From NCBI GenBank assembly GCA_031291875.1, contig JARLIE010000183.1, forward strand, positions 65,356-129,355: a stretch of 64,000 nt of DNA. The letters run 5' to 3'. The DNA is from Minisyncoccota bacterium. GTDB lineage: Bacteria; Patescibacteriota; Minisyncoccia; Phycocordibacterales; UBA2100. The notes beneath the pieces were generated by a model, which ran no database searches, had not been told where the DNA came from, and was given only the letters and a program-made list of their open reading frames with translations. A program made the position numbers and the translations under genes. Positions 626-25,746 of this stretch are shown here, one piece after another. The first letter of the stretch is position 1, and every line of letters starts with the position of its first letter.

Positions 626-3600
626 TTACTTTTCACGTTCGTGCGGCGCTCGGAAGAACAGCACCGGGACCAGCACGAGTGTGAGGCAGATCGCGAAGGA
701 AAGTCCGAACATGACCGAATACGCGAGCGGTCCCCAGGTCGCGTTCGAGGCCACGAGCGGCACCATACCGATAACGGTCGTGATGGTTGTGAGGGCAACT
801 GGGCGCAATCGAGTCGCGGCGCTCTCCACGACGATATCGATGACGGGCTTATTCGGTTCTGCAAGGAGGTGTTTGATCATTGAATCCATAAGAATGATCG
901 CGTGGTTGATGATGACGCCGCCGAGCGCAATGATGCCGAGCAACGAAGTGAACGACACTGGCTGCCCCGTCAGCGCGAGGCCGTCCAAAACGCCGATCAA
1001 CGAGAGCGGCACGATCGAAAGCAGGTAGAGCGTATAGCGAATCGAATTGAACGCCACGATGAGGATCATAAACATGAGGATGAGCCCTGCGATGAGCGCG
1101 ATGAACATTTGCTGGAACGACTGGTTGATGTCCTGTGTCTCGCCGCCATAAGAAACGGTAATGCCGGATGGCAGGTTGAGCTGCGGAAGTTCCTTTTGGA
1201 ATTGTGCGACGACCGCTCCCGTCGTCGTTTTATCGTCCGGGTACGCCGAAACCGTTTCGATGCGCTTTTTATCTTTGTGCGCAATGGCCGCGTTGGAAAC
1301 GCCGAGATTTTCGTCGAGCACCTCTCCCAAAAGCACCGGGCCGGAACTGCCTTGAATTGTCAGATTTTCGATACTGTCGAGCGTCGTTTGATTGGTATTC
1401 GACGGATCGGTGTAGTTGGAATTCAAATTGAGCTTCACGATAACGTCGACGTTCTGGTTGGGCTCTGTGATCGAGGTCGCCTTGGTGCCATTGACTGCCG
1501 CTCGGAGCGTCTGAGCGATCGCCTGTGTCGTGAGGCCAAACGCGGCCGCTTTTGCACGATTGATTGAAAGATCAAGCTCAGTGCCGTTATTCTGTGTTGT
1601 CGACGTGATGTTCGTGACATGCGGAATGGTCGAGAGAAGCTGCTGGCCTCGATCGGCAGCGGTGATGAGATCGTTCAAGTTGTCGCCTTCGAATTGAATC
1701 TGGATCGGCGCTCCCGAAGAAGGACCGTTATTGGCTTGCAGCACTTGCACCGTCGCGTCGGTTACCGGAGCGAGACGTCGTTCAAGATCGCTCGCGATTT
1801 GGGTGCTCGTTTTCGAGCGATGGTCGGGTAGGTTGACCGTGATGTTTGCTTGATTGCTACCCGAAGAGCCGCTACCCGTGAGCGATGAGCTCTCGCCGAC
1901 CGTCGTCTCGAACGACGCAACGTCCGGGTCGCCGTAAAGAATCTCTTCGACCTCGCGCGTTGCAAGATCGGTTTCCTGCAACGTCGTCCCCTGCGGCTTT
2001 TGGATGTTGATGTAGACGTAATCTTGGTCGTCCTGCGGGAAGAACGTTGTTTGGATCAACCCGGTAAACGGAAGTGCGAGCGAGAGGATAAGCAGCACGA
2101 TAAGTGTTCGCAAGAATATCTTTTGCGCACGAGTACTCTCCAGCAGGGCTCGTAGTTTCTCCTGGTACCACAGGGTCACGCGATCGGTGTAGTGTTCCTG
2201 GAGTTTTTCGAGGCGGTTCGGCTGTTTCTTAGTGAAAAGGACGGCGATCAAAGGCACGATGCCGAGCGCGACGAAGATTGACGCGATGAGCACGAAAATG
2301 AGCGTATAGGGAATGCCAGCGATGAATTTGCCAATAATACCCGAGATGAAAAAGAGTGGTGCGAATACCGCGACGGTCGCCATCGTTCCTGCAATCAACG
2401 GCCACGCGTAGTCGTTGAGCGCGGCGCGCGCCGCCTGCATTTTGTCGCCATAGATGCGCATTCTGGCGTGTATCGCCTCAGTAACGACGATGCCGGAGTC
2501 GACAAGGATGCCGACTGCAAGAATAAGCGCGAAGAGCGAAATAAAGTTGAGCGTATTACCTGTCGTGTACAAGCCGATGAACGCGATCAAGAACGAGAGC
2601 GGAATCGCGAGTGCAGCGACCAGCGATTCGCGCCAGCCGATTGTTAGCAGAAGCGCGATGATGACCAACAGGACGGTCTCCATGCCCGTCTTCGTCAGCT
2701 CGCCAAGTTGTTTTGAAACTTGTGCGCCCTGGTCTGTCGATGGCGAAACGAATACGGTAAGGCCGTTTAGCGTGGTTTCCTGCAACTTAGTGATCTCTGC
2801 CTTGACCGCATCGTCAGTGCTCTGGATTTGGGCGGTTGATTGCTTATGAATGGTGAGTGTGACCGCCTGCGCGCTCGGCTTGCCGTTGAGGGAAAGGCGC
2901 GAATAGGTACTGGCAGGAGCGAGGCCGTTGGAAATAGTCGCGATGTCGCGCAAATAGATGACGGCGCCGTTTTGCTGCCCGACGGCCACGTCCGCGATCT
3001 GTGCGGGATCGGTGATACCACCTTGAAAGTTAACGTCGTAATTCACGCTGTCCATCGAGATATTACCGGCCGGCAGCGCGGCATTGCTGGCAGAAATCGC
3101 GGAAATTACGCTCGTGAGACTCAATTTATAGAGCTGGAGCGCCTGTTTGTTGACGATCACGTCTACCTCGCGCGGTGGCACGCCTGCCACGTCGACAGCC
3201 GAAACGCCAGGGACGTTCTGGAGGTCGGTTTGCACGGATTGCGCGAGATCCGAGAGTTGGGTCGGCGGCAAATCGCCCGCGATTGAGACGACAAGAATTG
3301 GCTGATCGCTGATGTTGATCTTCGCGACCTGCGGCGTAGTCGCGTCGGCCGGCAAATTCGGTACGGCTTTCGAAACGGCATCACGAAGATCCTGAATCGA
3401 CTGATTGATATCAGCGTTTGCGGTGAATTGTACGGTGATCTCTGAAACTCCCTGGCTTGAATTCGAAGTGATCGTGTCGATATTGGCGAGACCAGAAATC
3501 TGGTCTTCGAGCTTGTCGGTGACAAGCGTTTCCATATCCTCGGCCGAGGCGCCAGGAAGCGTTGCGGTTACGATGCCGTCCGGGATTTCGATGGAGGGCG

Positions 3601-3718: not shown

Positions 3719-5332
3719 CTATTGGGAGTCCACGACGATAGTTTCGCCGTCGGAGAGTCCGCGCGCATCGGAAACAATATCCATATCCGGTGTAAGACCA
3801 CTTGTCACCTGGACCTGATCGCCAAGAATGGAGCCAAACACGATCGGCTTCGCGACGAGCGTTGAAGAGCTTACGGTAAAGACGACCGGGCCCGTCGGCG
3901 TTATTTTTGCCGCGACGATTGGGATCGTAATCGCGCTCGAGCTTGCGGTTTGGTTTTGCTGCTGGGCTTGCTCCGCACGGGACAAATCGAGGGTAACCGT
4001 ATCGCCATCCGTGAGCGTGTTTTGACCGCTGGTGATGCCGACTTTTACCTCAATCTCACCCGTTGTCGGATCGATCGCAGGCGCAATAGACGTGACCACG
4101 CCTTGCGCACCGCCCTCGATCGTCGCCTTGCCGCCTACCGCAAGCGTTTTCGCGTCGTCCGGCGTAACGAAAGTATCGATCTCAAGCGCGCCAGGATTCG
4201 AAACTTGCGCGACCTGCGCGAACGATGAAACGAAGTCCCCTCTCGTGACCGGCAAACTTACGATCGTACCTGAGATCGGTGAGCGCACGATGGTTTTTTC
4301 CAAGTTCGCCTTGGCTGCATTCAAAGCACCGAGCGCTTCTTGCACCTGCGCTTGCGCTTGGGCGATGGAATTTTGAGTCCCCGCACCCGCGCTATTGGCA
4401 GCCGTTTGTGACGTAGTTTGCGCCGCGTCGTAAGAATTTTTCGCCGAGGCGATCGCGGCGAGCGCCGCAACGACCTCCGAGCGGCCCGCACCTACTGCGC
4501 TCTGATCTGCGGCGATCGTGGAAGCTGAGATGGTCTGTGACGGTATTGCTTCGTTCGCAGCCTGAACGCAATCGTTGAGGAAAGATGAGACGATTTTCGC
4601 GTCGGCGGTCATTGCGTCGAAACGAGCGTCGATCGACGTACTCGCGCTCGTTTGCGAGATCGCGTCCGAAAGCGTGCCCGTGAGTGAGAAGCGTTCATTC
4701 TGCAAATTCACGGCCAATTGGCTGTCGGGAATAGAAAAAAGAAGCGTCGGTTGTTGCGTCGTGCTTCGGGGATTGGAAAAAAGCTGGTCGGCCTTCGTAT
4801 GCACGGCGTCATCGAGCGACGAATAAGCACTTTGAAGCGAGGCGATTGCCGACGATTCTTCGTTGACAGCGGCTGAAGCTGCTTGTGAGGAGTTGAGCGA
4901 GGAATTTGCGGCCGTTGCACCTTGCGCGTTTTGGAGTGAGGCCACTGCAGCATCGTACGCGCCTTGTGCCTGTTGCACGGCCGCCTGTTCGCTCGCGTTT
5001 GCGAATTCTGCGATAACTTCACCTGCGCCGACGCGATCGCCGATCGCTTTCGAAAGCGAGGTGATTTCGCCAGAGCTTTGCGCCAGAATCGTCGCCTGGT
5101 TGAGGGACGTCACCTTTCCAATGACTGGCAGCGGGCCCGCCTGGGACGAGAGTGTCGCGACAGATTCAAGTTTTACGTGTGGGATCTGGAGCGGCGCGCT
5201 GTCCGTGGCCGACGGTCGCAGCAAATAATGCACGCCAATGGCACCAGCGGCGATAATGATCACCGCTCCCCCGATCGAGTAGAGCCGTGGCAGTGCCAGG
5301 ATATATACAGTAATTTTTTTGATGAAACGCAT
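3719..5332 (-). CDS. RND efflux periplasmic adaptor (membrane fusion protein) with long coiled coil
   Basis: N-terminal TM anchor, long A/Q-rich coiled-coil region, beta-barrel-like C-terminus. Operon partner of the RND pump. Confidence 0.7.
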   Translation of the reverse strand: MRFIKKITVYILALPRLYSIGGAVIIIAAGAIGVHYLLRPSATDSAPLQIPHVKLESVATLSSQAGPLPVIGKVTSLNQATILAQSSGEITSLSKAIGDRVGAGEVIAEFANASEQAAVQQAQGAYDAAVASLQNAQGATAANSSLNSSQAASAAVNEESSAIASLQSAYSSLDDAVHTKADQLFSNPRSTTQQPTLLFSIPDSQLAVNLQNERFSLTGTLSDAISQTSASTSIDARFDAMTADAKIVSSFLNDCVQAANEAIPSQTISASTIAADQSAVGAGRSEVVAALAAIASAKNSYDAAQTTSQTAANSAGAGTQNSIAQAQAQVQEALGALNAAKANLEKTIVRSPISGTIVSLPVTRGDFVSSFAQVAQVSNPGALEIDTFVTPDDAKTLAVGGKATIEGGAQGVVTSIAPAIDPTTGEIEVKVGITSGQNTLTDGDTVTLDLSRAEQAQQQNQTASSSAITIPIVAAKITPTGPVVFTVSSSTLVAKPIVFGSILGDQVQVTSGLTPDMDIVSDARGLSDGETIVVDSQ

Positions 5333-5417
5333 GCAGATTTCTCACTATCATACGCGATAAATCGCTTTTTTTCTACTCGGCACCTCAAAGACGCGCCTTT
5401 TGCATCGGTGTTTTGAG

Positions 5418-11897: not shown

Positions 11898-11980
11898 GCG
11901 TCGGTGGCGGAGTGGTCAAACGCACTTGGCTGTAAACCAAGCGGCTTCGGTCTACGCAGGTTCGAATCCTGCCCGGCGCA
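11898..11980 (+). tRNA. tRNA-Tyr (anticodon GTA), class II
   Basis: Acceptor gcgtcgg/ccggcgc (one G-U pair), 3-bp D-stem, anticodon loop ctGTAaa, long variable arm, T-arm gcagg-ttcgaat-cctgc. Followed by the hairpin terminator aaacccgagcatgtctcgggtttt. Confidence 0.75.
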
Positions 11981-12020
11981 CAAAATGCCAAAACCCGAGC
12001 ATGTCTCGGGTTTTGTGCGA

Positions 12021-12137
12021 TTTTGTAGCTGCCGGGCAGGATTCGAAAGACGGAGGCGGGGGTCCCCGCAAGCTTGCGGGGCGCCGAGTCGGGGTCGCGG
12101 AATTTTCTTTGCTGGTAAAGAAAATATCCGTGACCGA
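12021..12137 (+). ncRNA. Unclassified conserved structured element, copy A (second copy at 21703-21822)
   Basis: ttttgtagctg...attcgaaagacggaggcgggggtccccgcaagcttgcggggcgccgagtcggggtcgcggaa...tatccgtgaccga. Shares ~80% identity with copy B, and the differences are compensatory within predicted helices. It starts 41 nt after tRNA-Tyr and no convincing ORF overlaps it. Confidence 0.5.
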
Positions 12138-12194
12138 ATGCTCCCCAAGCAGCGCTAAAAATGAGAATGATACAAATGGAGAGAACTAAAGAAA

Positions 12195-12230
12195 AGCCGC
12201 CTAGCTAAGGGCGGCTAATCTTTTTGTTTT
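12195..12230. terminator. Bidirectional hairpin terminator between element A and the clpB 3-prime end
   Basis: agccgcctagctaagggcggct followed by aatctttttgtttt. Confidence 0.5.
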
Positions 12231-20032: not shown

Positions 20033-20037
20033 AGTGG

Positions 20038-20110
20038 AGGCCACAGTGGGAGTTGCACCCACCCAATAGCGGTTTTGCAGACCGCCGCGTTGCTACTTCG
20101 CCATGTGGCC
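20038..20110 (-). tRNA. tRNA-Cys (anticodon GCA)
   Basis: Reverse complement ggccacatggcgaagtagcaacgcggcggtctGCAaaaccgc...gtgggtgcaactcccactgtggcct; the acceptor pairs perfectly. Confidence 0.75.
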
Positions 20111-20153
20111 GACGGTGTTAATGTAGCATGAATTAACGTAATATATCGATACC

Positions 20154-20238
20154 GCCGGGATGATGGAATGGTAGACATAGGGGACTTAAAATCCCCAGAC
20201 CGTAACAGGTCGTGAGAGTTCGAGTCTCTCTCCCGGCA
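20154..20238 (+). tRNA. tRNA-Leu (anticodon TAA), class II
   Basis: gccgggatgatggaatggtagacataggggacTTAAaatcccc + variable arm gaccgtaacaggtc + gagagttcgagtctctc + tcccggca. Confidence 0.8.
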
Positions 20239-20274
20239 AAAAAGATGCGACCCGAATGGGTCGCATCATGGAGA

Positions 20275-20910
20275 TCACACCACAGGCTGAAGAGGACGCG
20301 GCTGTTCGATCAGGGCTCCGTACTTCGGCAGAAATACGGTCTGCTGGAACGCCTCGAAACGAGCGAGATATTCCCCGCTCTCCTCGTACTTGATCACGAG
20401 AATGGGCAGGTTGAGCATCTTGCGCGTGTGGTTAAGGAAGAGCCGTGCCGTGCGGCTATTCATCTCCCAGAACGGGCTGATGCACAGCAGCATATCGTGC
20501 GCATACTGCGCGAGGGCGGCTCGCTCGGCTTCCGGATTGGCTTTCAGTCGTTCGACGCCACTTTTGATTTCAGCGTCGAGTTCGGCAACTAGCTGACGAA
20601 CGTGCGAACCGTGTGGAATCTTTTTGGCTGCCGCGTCTCGCCCGGTGCGGAACCAATTATTGCGCCTGCCGGTTAGGTCTGAATTGATGAGACCGACCGG
20701 ATTGAGTTGATGCGCATCGAGTAGCAGGATCTCCGCGATTTCGAGGTGACGTTTGATTTCCATGCTTTCCCAAACGCTGGGGTCGCTGAATTCGACGCTG
20801 GAAATCCGTGCACTATGCTCGACAAACTCTCGCACGGTATCCAAATCCTTCTTGCGCTGCTCGCGCAGTGCCGTCCTTTGCGCCTCAGTGAGATGCTTTG
20901 GCTGGAACAT
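20275..20910 (-). CDS. Hypothetical protein with a degenerate Fic/Doc-like motif (SPFWEMNSRTARLF)
   Basis: 211 aa and helical. The motif resembles HPFx(D/E)GNGRxxR but lacks the catalytic His and the Gly residues, so it is probably not an active AMPylase. Confidence 0.4.
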   Translation of the reverse strand: MFQPKHLTEAQRTALREQRKKDLDTVREFVEHSARISSVEFSDPSVWESMEIKRHLEIAEILLLDAHQLNPVGLINSDLTGRRNNWFRTGRDAAAKKIPHGSHVRQLVAELDAEIKSGVERLKANPEAERAALAQYAHDMLLCISPFWEMNSRTARLFLNHTRKMLNLPILVIKYEESGEYLARFEAFQQTVFLPKYGALIEQPRPLQPVV

Positions 20911-21023
20911 ATGCCGCTCCGTTGGTGGTTGTCCGCGGTGATAGTAGCAACTTGTCCGACATTTTCAAATCGCGAAAGTATTGTAGAATGCCGAGGTTCA
21001 TCGTATCGACACGACTGGACGTG

Positions 21024-21096
21024 ACCGCCCATAGCTCAGCTGGTAGAGCAGTCGCCTCTTAAGCGAACGGTCGTAGGTTCGAATCCTACTGGGCGG
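21024..21096 (+). tRNA. tRNA-Lys (anticodon CTT)
   Basis: ccgcccatagctcagctggtagagcagtcgcctCTTaagcgaacggtcgtaggttcgaatcctactgggcgga; acceptor 7/7 pairs. Confidence 0.75.
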
Positions 21097-21110
21097 ACGA
21101 GTGAGTGAAA

Positions 21111-21579: not shown

Positions 21580-21661
21580 GCTGGGGTGGCGAAATTGGTA
21601 GACGCACTAGGCTTAGGACCTAGCTCCGCAAGGAATGAGAGTTCGAGTCTCTCCCCCAGCA
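21580..21661 (+). tRNA. tRNA-Leu (anticodon TAG), class II
   Basis: gctggggtggcgaaattggtagacgcactaggctTAGgacctag + variable arm + gagagttcgagtctctc + ccccagca. Confidence 0.8.
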
Positions 21662-21702
21662 CAAAAATAAGGAGACCGACGCATGTCGTCGGACGACTAT
21701 AT

Positions 21703-21822
21703 TTTTGTAACTGCGGGGAGAGGCTCGAAAGCCGGAGCCGGGGGTCCCCGCAAGCTTGCGGGGCGGCGAGGCGGGGTCGCGGAAATTTCAGAGCGACGGC
21801 GACGAAATTATCCGTGACCGAG
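21703..21822 (+). ncRNA. Unclassified conserved structured element, copy B (paralog of 12021-12137)
   Basis: Starts 41 nt after tRNA-Leu(TAG) behind a hairpin. The core ccgggggtccccgcaagcttgcggggcggcgaggcggggtcgcggaa...tatccgtgaccga is conserved, with compensatory substitutions relative to copy A. Confidence 0.5.
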
Positions 21823-21838
21823 TCTGTCTATCAAAAAA

Positions 21839-22174
21839 TTACTGCCCACTCTGAAAGAAGGTCACGCCAGGATTGACGTTAACACTCGTATTGGGATTGT
21901 AGTTGCCCGTGCCACTCGAATTCACGTTCACCCCGAAATTGAATGTGTTGTTGATCAGCGCGATGATACCGACCACCGAAAACATAATGACCATGCCGAC
22001 TACTCCCCAAATCATGTGCTGCTTACCCTCATCGGTGTGTCCGCCCTGGTTGAGCGCGAGCAAGAATTGTACAAGCCCCCAGATGAAGTAAAAGAATCCG
22101 AGCGCAGCGAGAATGAGGAGCGCAGGGTCGATGACGTAGGTAGTAAATCGTCCGACGACGTCTCCGACCGACAT
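21839..22174 (-). CDS. VirB2/TrbC-like small membrane protein (array member 1 of 5)
   Basis: 111 aa with two TM helices (LLILAALGFFYFIWGLVQFLL and WGVVGMVIMFSVVGIIALI) and a G/N/S/T-rich C-terminal tail. Confidence 0.5.
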   Translation of the reverse strand: MSVGDVVGRFTTYVIDPALLILAALGFFYFIWGLVQFLLALNQGGHTDEGKQHMIWGVVGMVIMFSVVGIIALINNTFNFGVNVNSSGTGNYNPNTSVNVNPGVTFFQSGQ

Positions 22175-22192
22175 AGGCTATTTCGCCGGGCT

Positions 22193-22552
22193 TTAGTAGC
22201 CCGTGTTGATCTGGATACCTTGCGGAATGACCGGCGTGGTCGAAGTGACCTGGAACGTCGACTGCAAGAGGCGGACTAATCCCCAGATCGAAACCATTAC
22301 GAAGATCGTGATAACACCGTAGAGCATCACCTTGAGACCGTCGGCTTTGCCTTCGGTTGCCCCAGTAAAGAGGTATTTGATGAGACCGTAGAAAAACGCG
22401 ATGATCGCGAGCGTGACCATGAGGCCGATCGCCGCGTTGAGGAGTGTGTTGAAGAAGCCGAGCGTATTGAGAAGCGACTGAGCGGATGCAAGCGCCGGGA
22501 GGGCGATGACAGCAAAACCCAGAACTGTAGTACCGATAACGCGTGCACGCAT
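22193..22552 (-). CDS. VirB2/TrbC-like small membrane protein (array member 2)
   Basis: Signal peptide MRARVIGTTVLGFAVIALPALASA followed by two TM helices; same architecture as its neighbours. Confidence 0.5.
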   Translation of the reverse strand: MRARVIGTTVLGFAVIALPALASAQSLLNTLGFFNTLLNAAIGLMVTLAIIAFFYGLIKYLFTGATEGKADGLKVMLYGVITIFVMVSIWGLVRLLQSTFQVTSTTPVIPQGIQINTGY

Positions 22553-22681
22553 AGGAATAGTATTTATGTGATTCGGATTAAGTACTCTCATCGTACCGTG
22601 CATACGGGAAGGTACCTAGCGGACCTGTGGATAGCTCAGTACCGTAAAACCGACAGTTGCTGTTTTACGGTACTCGCCTTT

Positions 22682-23116
22682 TTAGTGGTCCTCCTTTTTT
22701 TCCTCGCCTCCCCCGCTAAACGCACCCGAGGTAATGACCAGCCACGCGAAGAGACCAATTAGTCCGACACTCAAAATGTACAAAGTCTGGCTCAAGTGCG
22801 TTTGTATGAACTCCACGACGCCAAGCACGAGGACCAGCGTAAAAAGCGTAGCCACTGCATATTCCATACGATGGATCGCGACGTCACGAGGACTATTATC
22901 GGTACCGAGCCTGACCACCCACATCATGAGCCCGGCCCCCATCTGCAAAAAAGCGGCGACAAGCGCCAAGCCGACAACCACATAAAAAAGTCCCGCGATC
23001 TGTGCTATCAAATCGGTTTCCGTCGATGCGAATGCAAGCGAAGGACTAAGCGCAAGAATCATCGCAGACACTGCAAGCTTTGCGAGTCTGAATTTTGAGC
23101 GCGCAGTCATACTCAT
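22682..23116 (-). CDS. VirB2/TrbC-like small membrane protein (array member 3; longer, 3-4 TM)
   Basis: Signal peptide ...AMILALSPSLAFAS followed by hydrophobic helices and an acidic C-terminal tail. Confidence 0.45.
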   Translation of the reverse strand: MSMTARSKFRLAKLAVSAMILALSPSLAFASTETDLIAQIAGLFYVVVGLALVAAFLQMGAGLMMWVVRLGTDNSPRDVAIHRMEYAVATLFTLVLVLGVVEFIQTHLSQTLYILSVGLIGLFAWLVITSGAFSGGGEEKKEDH

Positions 23117-23493
23117 TGGCCGAATTTGCAGTTAAGCCCGGTGCAGGTTTGCGCCGAGGTGCCGCTCGTCGTAGTCCCAATATTCGATCCGAAGAAGCTG
23201 TTCTGCACGAGCTGTACGATGCCCCAGATGGAAACGGCGAAGAATATAACGATAATGCCCCAAAAAAGCTGCTCTTTGAGCCGCTCTCGTCCCTCTTGCC
23301 CCTGCTTGAAAAGACTGCTGGAGATTCCCCAAAAATAAATGACGATGGCGAGCACAATAAGATCGGTCGTCGCGCTCCCCAAAAGCTGCACGATCTGATT
23401 CGCGAGCTGCCCGAATGTCTGGGGTGTAGCGGCGGACGCGAGCCCGGGCATGAGCGTCGCGCCGAGAGCAATGATGAGAATTTTTTTGGTCAT
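23113..23493 (-). CDS. VirB2/TrbC-like small membrane protein (array member 4)
   Basis: MTKKILIIALGATLMPGLASAATPQ signal, two TMs, a Cys-pair tail QTCTGLNC. ATGA overlap with member 5. Confidence 0.5.
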   Translation of the reverse strand: MTKKILIIALGATLMPGLASAATPQTFGQLANQIVQLLGSATTDLIVLAIVIYFWGISSSLFKQGQEGRERLKEQLFWGIIVIFFAVSIWGIVQLVQNSFFGSNIGTTTSGTSAQTCTGLNCKFGQ

Positions 23494-23849
23494 GAGCCTC
23501 CGAGCACTTGATTGGCGGTCGACGCAATGAGCGTTGCGAGTACCCAAGCGCCGAGAATCAAAATTGCTCCCAGGATCACGTACATAAAATTCTGTTTTGC
23601 CTTTCCGAGTTTCTCTTCGTTGCCTCGCGCGAAGACGAACAGGAATCCGGAGTACACGATAAAAAGTGTCAGGATCGGAAGCGAAATTTGCACTACTGCT
23701 TTCAAGAAATCTGCGATGAAGGTCTGCAAATCCGGCACCTTTGCCGGGTTACTGAGCGTCTGGTCGGCAAACGCGACGAGCGGCGAAAGCGCGACGAAAG
23801 CGGCCCCTGCCGTAAAAACGCTTCGAAGTTTGGCGATACTGCGGTTCAT
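23490..23849 (-). CDS. VirB2/TrbC-like small membrane protein (array member 5)
   Basis: MNRSIAKLRSVFTAGAAFVALSPLVAFA signal, then two TM helices. Confidence 0.5.
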   Translation of the reverse strand: MNRSIAKLRSVFTAGAAFVALSPLVAFADQTLSNPAKVPDLQTFIADFLKAVVQISLPILTLFIVYSGFLFVFARGNEEKLGKAKQNFMYVILGAILILGAWVLATLIASTANQVLGGS

Positions 23850-25162
23850 TGCGGTTGGTCTGCGGTGAGTAAGTTACCGATTTGCTGATTCGCACGGCCG
23901 ATTGCGTCTTGCGCTTTCATGGCTCCGCTATCAGTATCATCAATCATAGCTTGAAAAATTGGTCCTGTCTGGGTCGGATCCGGGTCTGCCCAGGTTCTCG
24001 TGATGAGCGACATCTGGTTAATGAGCCGCGTATTTGCCACGGTAGAAGTGCTGGCGGCGATGACGTCCCGACGAGCCGGCGCGTAGCCGAGCGATTGCGC
24101 GAGCGCTTGATCGACGGGAGCTGACGCGAGCAGGTACGCGACTGTAAGCGCGCTTTGGAGATTTGGGTCGTTCTTCGTGACAGCAATCGCATACACGGTA
24201 CCCGCGTCGATCGCGTTCGAGGAACTTCGCACCTGCGGTATGGGAGAAACTGCAAAATTCAAGTTGGGATTGGCGGCAATGATTTGCGGCTGCTCTCCGG
24301 CATACCCTACGTACATAGCCAAGTTGCCTGCGGAAAATGCCTGACTCGCCTCAGGCTGTGCATTATTCCAGCTGTAGTCGGATTGCGAGGGGTTGGCAAA
24401 TTCGGTGTAAAACTCAAGCGCTGTTTGCGCAGCGAGCGAGGCACCGCCTCCTGCTGCGAGCGCGGGCGCATATTGCCCCGCCGAATTTTGGGTGACGATC
24501 TTACCGCCCGCTTGTTGAATCAACATCGAAACAATATCTTTCGCTCCCGAAATATTTTGGTAGGTACCAAGCGCGATTGCAGCAGATTGGATGTTTCCGG
24601 AAGAGTCTCGCTTCACGAGCTGCCCTGCCATGCCCGGCAATTGATCCCAAAACTGTGGCGGTTGCGCAACGCCCGCTGTCGCCAGCATGTCCCTATTCCA
24701 ATACAAAACGAGCGGATCGACGAGAACCGGGAGTCCGAGAATACCGTTTGCGGTCATATAAGTATCGCCTGCGTCGACGAAGGTATTTTGGAATTGCGAC
24801 TGCGAGAGCGAACTGTACGGGAACTGGTAGACCTTATTGGCGTCATAGAGCGCCTCATCACTGCGAAGCAGGAAGAGATCGGGACCCTTGCCGCTAGCGA
24901 GCGCGTTCGCCAGATCTTGCTCGAACGTTCCTGGATTTTTTTGCACATAGGTAACCTGCGAGAGGCGCGAATCTTGTTCGGCCGCCGCGCGAATCACTTC
25001 CTTGACCGTCCCGGCGTCGAACGTTCCCCAAATCGTAACCGGCGAGAGTCCGCCGTTGCCACCTCCGGCAGTCGCGAGCGCGAACACCAAAATACCGGCA
25101 ACGCCGATCGCGCCGAATACGGCGAGGAGCACGAGTTGAAATGAGGAAATTCCTTTGCTCAT
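23846..25162 (-). CDS. Extracellular solute-binding protein (ABC-type, family-1-like), orphan
   Basis: N-terminal TM/signal anchor, then ~400 aa with the alternating pattern of a periplasmic sugar/solute-binding fold (..LPVLVDPLVLYWNRDML..). No permease or ATPase gene is adjacent. Confidence 0.6.
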   Translation of the reverse strand: MSKGISSFQLVLLAVFGAIGVAGILVFALATAGGGNGGLSPVTIWGTFDAGTVKEVIRAAAEQDSRLSQVTYVQKNPGTFEQDLANALASGKGPDLFLLRSDEALYDANKVYQFPYSSLSQSQFQNTFVDAGDTYMTANGILGLPVLVDPLVLYWNRDMLATAGVAQPPQFWDQLPGMAGQLVKRDSSGNIQSAAIALGTYQNISGAKDIVSMLIQQAGGKIVTQNSAGQYAPALAAGGGASLAAQTALEFYTEFANPSQSDYSWNNAQPEASQAFSAGNLAMYVGYAGEQPQIIAANPNLNFAVSPIPQVRSSSNAIDAGTVYAIAVTKNDPNLQSALTVAYLLASAPVDQALAQSLGYAPARRDVIAASTSTVANTRLINQMSLITRTWADPDPTQTGPIFQAMIDDTDSGAMKAQDAIGRANQQIGNLLTADQPQ

Positions 25163-25746
25163 ACGATTGGTGTGCCGAGATCGGGGCGAGCGATCAAGCC
25201 CCAATGATGAGCCCCGGCATTGAATTCGCGAACGATCTCAAATCCGGCCTCGCGGATGAGGGCATCACCCGCGGCTTTTGCTACAACCTGCTTCTTATGA
25301 GGACCCATCATGCCAAAAGAGTCGGCCCAGTCGATCGCAACGAGGCTGCCGGACGGTTTCAAAATCCGTTTCGCTTCACGCAAAACGACAGCGGTATCTT
25401 CGAGTTGGAACAAAAGATTGGAAATAAGCACGAGGTCGATTGTTCCACCAGCAAGCTTGGAGGCCTTCGGTTTTTCCAAGTCGCTCCAAATAATTTTTAC
25501 ATTCTTCAAGCCGCGCTTCGCGGATTCGTTGTGAATGCGTTTGAGGAGCTCTCGCTGCACGTCGATCGCATACAACTTGCCTCCTTCTCCAATAGCCTCA
25601 GCAATGGGCCATACGTAATGGCCCGAACCCGCGCCGAAATCGGCGACTTGCATGCCCGGCTGTAGTTCGAAATGCAAACTATTGCGCACGGGATGCGCGA
25701 AACCTTCGGTGTTGAGCGGGACATGCGAACGCGCCGGGTGCTGCAT
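25159..25746 (-). CDS. Class I SAM-dependent methyltransferase
   Basis: Motif I VADFGAGSGHY, the acidic post-I residue (AIDVQ) and motif II LVLISNLLFQL. Confidence 0.75.
   Translation of the reverse strand: MQHPARSHVPLNTEGFAHPVRNSLHFELQPGMQVADFGAGSGHYVWPIAEAIGEGGKLYAIDVQRELLKRIHNESAKRGLKNVKIIWSDLEKPKASKLAGGTIDLVLISNLLFQLEDTAVVLREAKRILKPSGSLVAIDWADSFGMMGPHKKQVVAKAAGDALIREAGFEIVREFNAGAHHWGLIARPDLGTPIV

Follow-up and report, generated by a model that had tools for sequence, protein, structure and literature searches.

A structured, gene-less element behind tRNA-Leu(TAG) belongs to a family whose closing helix matches the 3' end of the neighbouring tRNA

What is the short structured element that follows tRNA-Leu(TAG) in this Minisyncoccota bacterium, and how did it come to stand there? 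The window, i.e. the whole stretch of 64,000 nucleotides that was analysed, has a G+C content of about 54%. In it, the initial annotation had recorded at 21703-21822 the second, paralogous copy (copy B) of a tRNA-linked structured element. The immediate surroundings are as described there: the element starts 41 nt past tRNA-Leu(TAG), a hairpin (21676-21692) lies ahead of it, the quoted strings of the conserved core are found in it, and its end at 21822 falls 17 nt short of the stop codon (21839-21841) of a convergent pilin-like ORF (21839-22174, minus strand). The limits were correct as to location but slightly too narrow, as the 3' arm runs to about 21838 and the insert begins at 21670. The parts of the locus, together with copy A, are:

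21580-21661/2, plus strand: tRNA-Leu(TAG), the target gene (ARAGORN; Rfam tRNA, 59.2 bits)
21644 and 21661, plus strand: T-loop C56 and discriminator A73 of tRNA-Leu(TAG), read from the sequence
21644-21669, plus strand: DR1, the first copy of the direct repeat of about 25 nt, tRNA-Leu C56 to A73 and the trailer caaaaata
21670-21697, plus strand: spacer module of copy B with hairpin P0 (stem 21676-21681 / 21687-21692, loop CATGT)
21698-21727, plus strand: inverted copy of DR1 (anti-trailer and 5' arm), tatatttttgtaactgcggggagaggctcg; its 3' half is the 5' strand of P1
21728-21730, plus strand: J1/2, AAA (family consensus A-A/G-A/G/U, then the invariant first G of P2)
21731-33 with 21770-72, plus strand: P2, whose middle pair covaries
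21734, plus strand: bulged G
21735-36 with 21768-69, plus strand: tandem G-A/A-G
21737-21767, plus strand: P3 hairpin arm, whose pairs show all four Watson-Crick types
21773-21775, plus strand: J2/4, GGG, invariant
21776-21818, plus strand: P4, with the base GUCGCGGA / UCCGUGAC, a conserved G-U, bulged A 21810 and a variable tip
21819-21838, plus strand: CGA and DR2, the tRNA 3' end and trailer in a second, decayed direct copy (cgagtctgtctatcaaaaaat) that supplies the 3' strand of P1
12021-12151, plus strand: copy A, of the same family, behind tRNA-Tyr (11898-11981); covariance-model match 12029-12151

The bounds of the insert follow from comparison with a relative (contig L072) in which the corresponding site is empty: there, only aaaag separates tRNA-Leu(TAG) from the stop codon of the convergent pilin-like gene. 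At the place of this tRNA end with its aaaag, the window carries the decayed direct copy and aaaaat, so that the inserted unit at copy B comprises 21670-21818, i.e. 149 nt without an ORF. The hairpin P0 (ccgacg-catgt-cgtcgg), a putative terminator, is part of this inserted unit, since it is missing from the empty site; its CAUGU/GCAUGC loop is met again in other family copies. The inverted segment tatatttttgtaactgcggggagaggctcg (21698-21727) is the reverse complement of 21644-21669, save one inserted c and a few substitutions. The core begins 66 nt past the tRNA end, and P1 of copy B contains two mismatches in the covariance-model alignment.

The gene convergent on copy B and its four upstream neighbours form a tandem of five genes for small membrane proteins within a minus-strand cluster (21839-25204), in which they are followed by an SBP_bac_8 solute-binding gene, and the pilin-like and SBP_bac_8 cluster is syntenic in two relatives (L072 and L073). 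Of the five small membrane proteins, the two that were scanned gave weak, sub-cut-off Pfam matches to T4SS_pilin (PF18895). A dense tRNA cluster (Cys, Leu-TAA, Lys-CTT) occupies 20035-21098, with a gene of weak Fic/DOC-family similarity (20275-20910, minus strand) wedged between tRNA-Leu(TAA) and tRNA-Lys.

Copies A and B are 83% identical in alignment, their flanks being unalignable. They differ by two compensatory pair differences in the P2/P3 region and are identical in the unpaired core segments. Exactly two occurrences in the window were counted for a 26-mer of the core, and likewise for the two-block pattern CGGGGTCGCGGAA..TATCCGTGACCGA; 100 shuffles give an expectation of 0.00 for either. 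A covariance model built from ten copies of uniform length, all from other organisms, gives exactly two matches in the window, copy B at 21711-21835 (56.6 bits) and copy A at 12029-12151 (56.8 bits), both with an E-value of about 1e-13. Folds of the single sequences are more stable than those of shuffled ones (z about -3.3). As structures, these minimum-free-energy folds were discarded, as the two copies disagree in the 5' half. In copy A, the 5' arm (gccgggcaggattcgaa) matches the reverse complement of ttcgaatcctgcccggc in tRNA-Tyr without a single difference; the 3' arms are decayed in both window copies. The ClpB protein whose gene adjoins copy A has a 100% identical counterpart in an NCBI 'Candidatus Pacebacteria' MAG, and the relatives that come next, with 85-93% identity, bear the names Kaiserbacteria, Parcubacteria or Paceibacterota; the window thus stems from a Kaiserbacteria-like CPR genome.

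To place the element in a wider context, a family pattern, CGAGNCGGGGTCGCG-N20-50-GTGACCGA, was derived from three syntenic contigs of relatives (L071, L072 and L073) and run against metagenomes, where it occurs at no fewer than 120 loci; with the window and the relatives, at least 127 matches were obtained. A tRNA gene lies upstream on the same strand in 90 of the 127 matches listed, mostly about 67-130 nt away (tRNA end to CGAG), and these tRNAs represent at least 39 different anticodons. The flank is too short to judge in 16 of the 127 listed, and 21 lack an upstream tRNA, two of these being false positives (L092, L165). In three of the tRNA-less matches listed, the upstream gene is a tmRNA (L138:870-1447, L074:3101-3681, L128:944-1510), and the tmRNA 3' end recurs in the arms of these copies, as complement or as direct copy; others are second copies of tandem units or of duplicated segments. 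The linkage to tRNA genes that had been noted for the window is hence seen as a near-universal position behind tRNA or tmRNA genes in the family. Among the loci listed, the covariance model recovers 118 copies in 100 sources. One of the contigs (L137), whose isocitrate dehydrogenase has a 100% identical counterpart in an NCBI MAG, belongs to the Elusimicrobiales and holds two copies (1607-1727, plus strand, and 1760-1873, minus strand), which means that the family is not confined to CPR bacteria.

Neither of the two patterns searched matched any IMG/VR viral contig, and in GTDB genomes the matches listed for the P3-hairpin pattern were chance G+C-rich sequences, a helix of 23S rRNA and a Myxococcota repeat unrelated to the element. 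No recurrent neighbour protein such as an integrase, a reverse transcriptase or TnpB was detected within 2.5 kb among the 120 loci listed. At gathering threshold, Rfam 15 yielded only tRNA and tmRNA matches in the window and 31 related loci, and permissive local scans gave chance matches far below threshold. No description of the element or of its sequence motifs was found in the literature, in a search that took in few of the papers in subscription journals. The element represents a widespread family that is absent from Rfam and apparently undescribed.

The repeat seen in the GTDB search is a multicopy structured sequence of its own, gcacaaccccttgtgg..GGGGTCCCCGCAACGAAGCGGGGCGggatgcatcga..ccctctcag, found in Myxococcota and Bradymonadia MAGs (L002, L010, L027, L038, L058 and L060, which form one Myxococcales bin, and L023 and L052; e.g. 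L027:23-160). As it is located mostly at contig ends, it may be mobile or form the terminal part of an IS or intron.

Support for a common RNA fold comes from the alignment of the family. A first pair count was made on an alignment anchored on conserved motifs. In the covariance-model alignment, which is itself fitted to the model, standard pairs occupy 90.3% of cells compared with 68.0% after shuffling (none of 500 shuffles reaches the observed value), and only 33-44% of cells pair when the partners are slid. Changes on both sides are found in 31 of the 35 pairs, and in P4 in 13 of 15. Independently, RNAalifold predicts P2, P3 and P4 with 22 pairs, 19 of them compensated. With this strong covariation among more than 115 homologues, the proposal that the second copy could serve a covariation argument is well borne out. 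The conserved core forms a three-way junction in which P2, P3 and P4 covary heavily. On the 5' side, the consensus runs from the 5' arm through UCG (or GAG), AAA, P2, a bulged G and tandem G-A/A-G into P3, which is variable in length; on the 3' side, GGG is followed by P4, CGA and the 3' arm. P2 consists of G-N-C paired with G-N'-C, its middle pair being CG in 42, GC in 38, AU in 30 and UA in 2 copies. The base of P4, GUCGCG / (U/C)GUGAC, includes an invariant G-U and a bulged A below a variable tip. At another P4 position, GU (64) and GC (45) occur and A-C almost never; this asymmetry between G-U and A-C assigns the fold to the tRNA-sense strand.

Some 45 nucleotides of the core vary hardly at all between phyla (CPR, Elusimicrobiales), an invariance that is partly a sampling effect because the scan pattern fixed 22 core bases; diverged copies found by the model only show U-A to C-G exchanges within the 'invariant' P4 base. 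The junction of P2 and P3 recalls a kink-turn, in which a C-stem is followed by a 3-nt bulge, tandem sheared G-A/A-G pairs and a second stem. In the predicted fold, the element likewise has a C-stem (GNC/GN'C), a bulge, tandem G-A/A-G and a second stem, with GA directly 5' of the C-stem on the unbulged strand. However, GGAG opposite CGA leaves a bulge of 1 nt rather than 3, so that the likeness is a resemblance only.

Several variants were observed among the loci. A small optional hairpin module, (a/t)AGCGUACUCGCGG, stands between CGA and the 3' arm, just after GTGACCGA, in seven of them (L074, L089, L096, L112, L125, L157, L159). At least 16 loci have a long P4 with conserved CACUUAG/CUUAGUGA, and the P3 arm of L148 contains three tandem 24-nt repeats.

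In contrast to the core, the arms are specific to each locus. Beyond GUGAC, the 3' flank directly repeats the upstream tRNA, from C56 through the discriminator and often a few trailer bases further; its longest exact match to its own tRNA has a median of 16 nt and a mode of 19, compared with 5 for the tRNAs of other loci. The 5' arm, which runs up to UCGAAAG, carries the segment from C56 to the tRNA end as its reverse complement (median match 11 versus 6). P1, formed by both arms, mirrors the acceptor stem and T stem of the adjacent tRNA and continues through T-loop bases, with the core occupying the place where the T loop would be. G-U pairs within the tRNA stems allow the two possible sources of the arm to be told apart: in 15 of 16 such cases, its sequence is Watson-Crick complementary to the 3' strand, as opposed to repeating the 5' strand. 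Counted by stem and with split arms included, complement outweighs copy by 18 to 2 in the T-stem part and by 7 to 2 in the acceptor part. The arm was thus templated on the 3' strand of the tRNA, and a duplicated tRNA 5' half as its source is ruled out by the same comparison. Beyond the inner 8-10 bp, P1 decays at a roughly neutral rate, so that the full mimicry of the tRNA may reflect origin and not function.

The left boundary of the direct repeat is always C56 and the right boundary is variable, the repeat being long (18-25 nt, up to 75). A mature, CCA-tailed tRNA was rejected as its source, since the repeats run 1-6 nt or more into the trailer of the gene and CCA is present in some cases only. 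Two architectures can be distinguished. In type I, to which the window copies belong, the tRNA is followed by its trailer, hairpin P0, the anti-trailer and a contiguous arm. In type II, a conserved hairpin module, often of 25 nt and with the loop AACUGCUU or CCUGCG, splits the arm exactly between acceptor complement and T-stem complement, and the element sits past the tRNA's own terminator. About half of the copies measure 80-86 nt from C56 to where the 5' arm ends.

Occupancy of the tRNA-Tyr, Trp, Leu-CAA, Leu-TAG and Lys loci varies among genomes whose ClpB proteins are 88-93% identical. The tRNA-Leu(TAG) site is without a copy in L071 and L073 as well. At tRNA-Trp, the window is empty and both L071 and L073 are occupied; at tRNA-Leu(CAA), the window is likewise empty and only L071 is occupied. 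The tRNA-Lys copy in L071 is degenerate, and one copy in this set of three relatives does not lie behind a tRNA. At tRNA-Tyr, the core is intact and the repeat decayed in the window; in L073, the core is decayed and the repeat, of 19 nt, is perfect; neither L071 nor L072 carries anything there. Elsewhere in the family, direct repeats can be exact over 53 nt (L184) or 72 nt (L168), and some copies form tandem units (L187, L125). Loss by recombination between repeats can mimic recent gain. Among 23 pairs of cores that are at least 85% identical, 19 are found at different tRNAs with unrelated arms, which indicates that the core moves and the arms are re-specified locally. A lineage-specific attP was rejected as a model, since near-identical cores carry different arms at different tRNAs.

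A further insert was observed in L071, in the interval that corresponds to the Fic/DOC gene of the window. Here (4700-5374, minus strand), tRNA-Leu(TAA) is followed by an arm-like gggattcg, an ORF of 160 aa, a terminator and then ctgtgaccga joined to ttcccacccccggca, a junction that equals the right junction of the element plus a copy of the tRNA 3' end. The 160-aa ORF has no Pfam or PHROG match. Judged by its sequence, this insert may be a cargo-carrying relative of the element.

Is the element transcribed together with its tRNA? Promoter prediction for the two window copies gave no promoter-like site between tRNA and element, and a bidirectional terminator-like hairpin (12195-12216) is located between copy A and the stop of the convergent clpB. 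From these two observations, we infer that the element is read through from the tRNA promoter. Terminator prediction does not call P0 of copy B as such on the plus strand, where only a shifted 5-bp hairpin is reported, and it calls P0 of copy A on the minus strand only.

The descriptive claims made here for the element are almost certainly real. As to its nature, a mobile, co-transcribed structured element that carries no gene and copies its arms from the target is the reading we favour, with modest confidence. The mobile unit would be a protein-less segment, about 150-190 bp long, that enters tRNA or tmRNA genes at their 3' ends and is composed of a regenerated tRNA 3' segment, a spacer hairpin, an inverted copy, a core of about 90 nt and the displaced direct copy. 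In the transcript, the tRNA would fold first; the inverted copy would then pair with the downstream direct copy to form P1, which would close the three-way junction, with P1 stacked on P4 and the P2-P3 arm containing the kink-turn-like G-A motif. New copies would arise at other tRNA genes, the arms being re-copied from each target, and would be lost either precisely, by recombination between the direct repeats, or by decay. The core might act as a handle for a trans-acting enzyme, or as a ribozyme, in propagation or processing, and the tRNA-like P1 may allow RNase P and RNase Z to release the RNA.

How such a unit could acquire its arms is a matter of conjecture, and the simplest hypothetical scheme consistent with the type I copies would take four steps. 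A staggered break, with one nick fixed at 55/56 in the T loop and the second about 18-25 nt or more downstream, would be followed by fold-back synthesis primed at the spacer hairpin, yielding an inverted copy that ends opposite C56. The core would then be joined via the shared CGA/TCG microhomology, and filling-in of the second overhang would give rise to the direct copy. Alternatively, the arms might be re-templated by template switching within the quasi-palindrome. The type II copies, with their split arm and their position after the tRNA terminator, are not explained by a simple fold-back model.

MITEs and tRNA-derived SINEs are comparable to the element: they too are short and carry no gene, occur in many copies whose presence varies, and have inverted termini with direct repeats at their flanks. 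The termini of MITEs are inherited from a parent transposon and are flanked by a short target-site duplication of fixed length. In contrast, the termini of the element are the local tRNA 3' end and differ between copies with the same core, the repeat is long and variable, and the interior, which distinguishes it from SINEs as well, is a conserved RNA structure common to phyla. Like tRNA-like RNAs, guide-scaffold RNAs and kink-turns, MITEs and SINEs match the element in one aspect only.

The near-invariant core across phyla fits a function for the host equally well. The element could be a host-beneficial non-coding RNA of tRNA metabolism, a mimic of acceptor and T arm that would be released by RNase P and RNase Z, perhaps CCA-tailed, and would serve as decoy, sensor or partner for enzymes or toxins recognising tRNA 3' halves, its patchiness reflecting dispensability. 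Mimics of tRNAs or minihelices are found in the tRNA-like domain of tmRNA, viral TLS, mascRNA and bacterial YrlA, and the helix equivalent to acceptor and T stem could similarly be read by RNase P, RNase Z or CCA-adding enzyme; unlike these RNAs, the element copies its specific neighbour and its core replaces the T loop, and neither ARAGORN nor Rfam detects a tRNA or tmRNA gene or pseudogene in it. Extreme conservation of the core with long-term compensatory evolution, seen also between copies A and B with their identical unpaired segments, speaks for such a role, as does the position of the extra type II hairpin exactly at the boundary of acceptor and T stem, where real tRNA arms emerge. However, only some tRNAs carry the element, the subset shifts between close relatives, decayed copies exist (tRNA-Tyr in L073, tRNA-Lys in L071), the outer part of P1 decays about neutrally and the same core is found with swapped arms at different tRNAs, so that a host RNA appears rather unlikely, if well worth keeping in view. 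By analogy with HDV-like theta ribozymes, a self-cleaving or self-ligating ribozyme might act in tRNA 3' processing or in its own excision. Theta ribozymes, which are minimal HDV-like ribozymes, adjoin phage tRNAs and cleave within 5 nt of the tRNA 3' end (PMC10879173), a precedent for small ribozymes at this position. Both are small structured RNAs directly 3' of many tRNA genes, presumably riding on tRNA transcription, and the many invariant junction nucleotides of a small three-way junction and the precise junctions, after UCG on the 5' side and between GUGAC and CGA on the 3' side, would suit a ribozyme. Yet the element is a three-way junction and theta a nested double pseudoknot, of which a non-exhaustive pseudoknot search gave no sign; it lies 40-66 nt from the tRNA, with a spacer hairpin and the inverted arm in between and the core beginning about 66 nt past the tRNA end; it resides in chromosomes of CPR bacteria and Elusimicrobia, theta in gut phages; and it matches no Rfam ribozyme family. 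A catalytic role of this kind is accordingly improbable.

Two further explanations account for the repeats or for the arm. Islands mobilised by tyrosine integrases use a T-loop sublocation in tRNA and tmRNA genes, regenerate the gene by sequence borne on the insert and leave a displaced 3' fragment at the far end (Islander database, PMC4383910). The element shares this hallmark, having a regenerated target gene and a displaced 3' fragment that starts at C56, and tRNA and tmRNA genes are both targeted, so that it might be a relic at the DNA level, i.e. an attL/attR scar or a miniature derivative of such an island, with the core as protein-binding attP arm DNA. Against this stand its size (about 150 nt; 149 nt at copy B) without an integrase or any other gene on it or an integrase nearby, the covarying helices with strand-specific G-U pairs, which would not be expected of duplex protein-binding sites, the use of one core at many tRNAs with arms set by each tRNA and not by a lineage-specific attP, and the additional inverted copy of the target, which has no counterpart in att sites. 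We regard this origin as very improbable. The same low standing is given to a guide-plus-scaffold RNA, in which the 5' arm would be a guide of 17-26 nt against the tRNA gene or its 3' end and the core a scaffold for an RNA-guided enzyme encoded elsewhere. It would account for an arm that is perfectly Watson-Crick to the tRNA 3' strand even at tRNA G-U pairs, for the order of variable 5' arm and invariant structured core, and for the bipartite arms that flank a fixed hairpin in type II. However, the arm is sequestered in cis by the direct copy, we know of no machinery that would re-template such an arm, and an effector gene is not linked: the omega/reRNA of IS200/605, the bridge RNA of IS110 and retron ncRNA need an adjacent tnpB/iscB, IS110 recombinase or reverse transcriptase, and the element is without a recurrent neighbour at the 120 loci listed.

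The mobile, gene-less element with arms copied from its target remains the preferred reading. A more far-reaching version, which we put forward as a tentative and, taken as a whole, rather doubtful proposal, sees in it a new class of protein-less, RNA-centred mobile element (or of guide-scaffold RNA) whose target is the T loop of tRNA and tmRNA genes, with the closing helix rebuilt at each insertion on the sequence of that target. Its core would be a ribozyme, or a handle for a reverse transcriptase or recombinase, common to CPR bacteria and Elusimicrobia, and the released RNA would mimic a tRNA end and be processed by RNase P and RNase Z.

If true, this would represent an abundant class of structured RNA or mobile element absent from Rfam, with many copies per genome, in Elusimicrobia and in CPR bacteria, whose genomes are tiny and have few known mobile elements. 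Three features are unusual in combination: a core at the place of the T loop, a closing helix copied in both orientations from the tRNA, and a left boundary fixed at 55/56. Together they point either to an unknown target-templated mechanism of insertion or to systematic tRNA mimicry. The covariance model provides a ready tool to annotate thousands of unannotated intergenic regions. In either case, the finding bears on the evolution of tRNA genes and on the tolerance of small genomes for selfish RNA, and it may have a bearing on RNA-guided or ribozyme chemistry.
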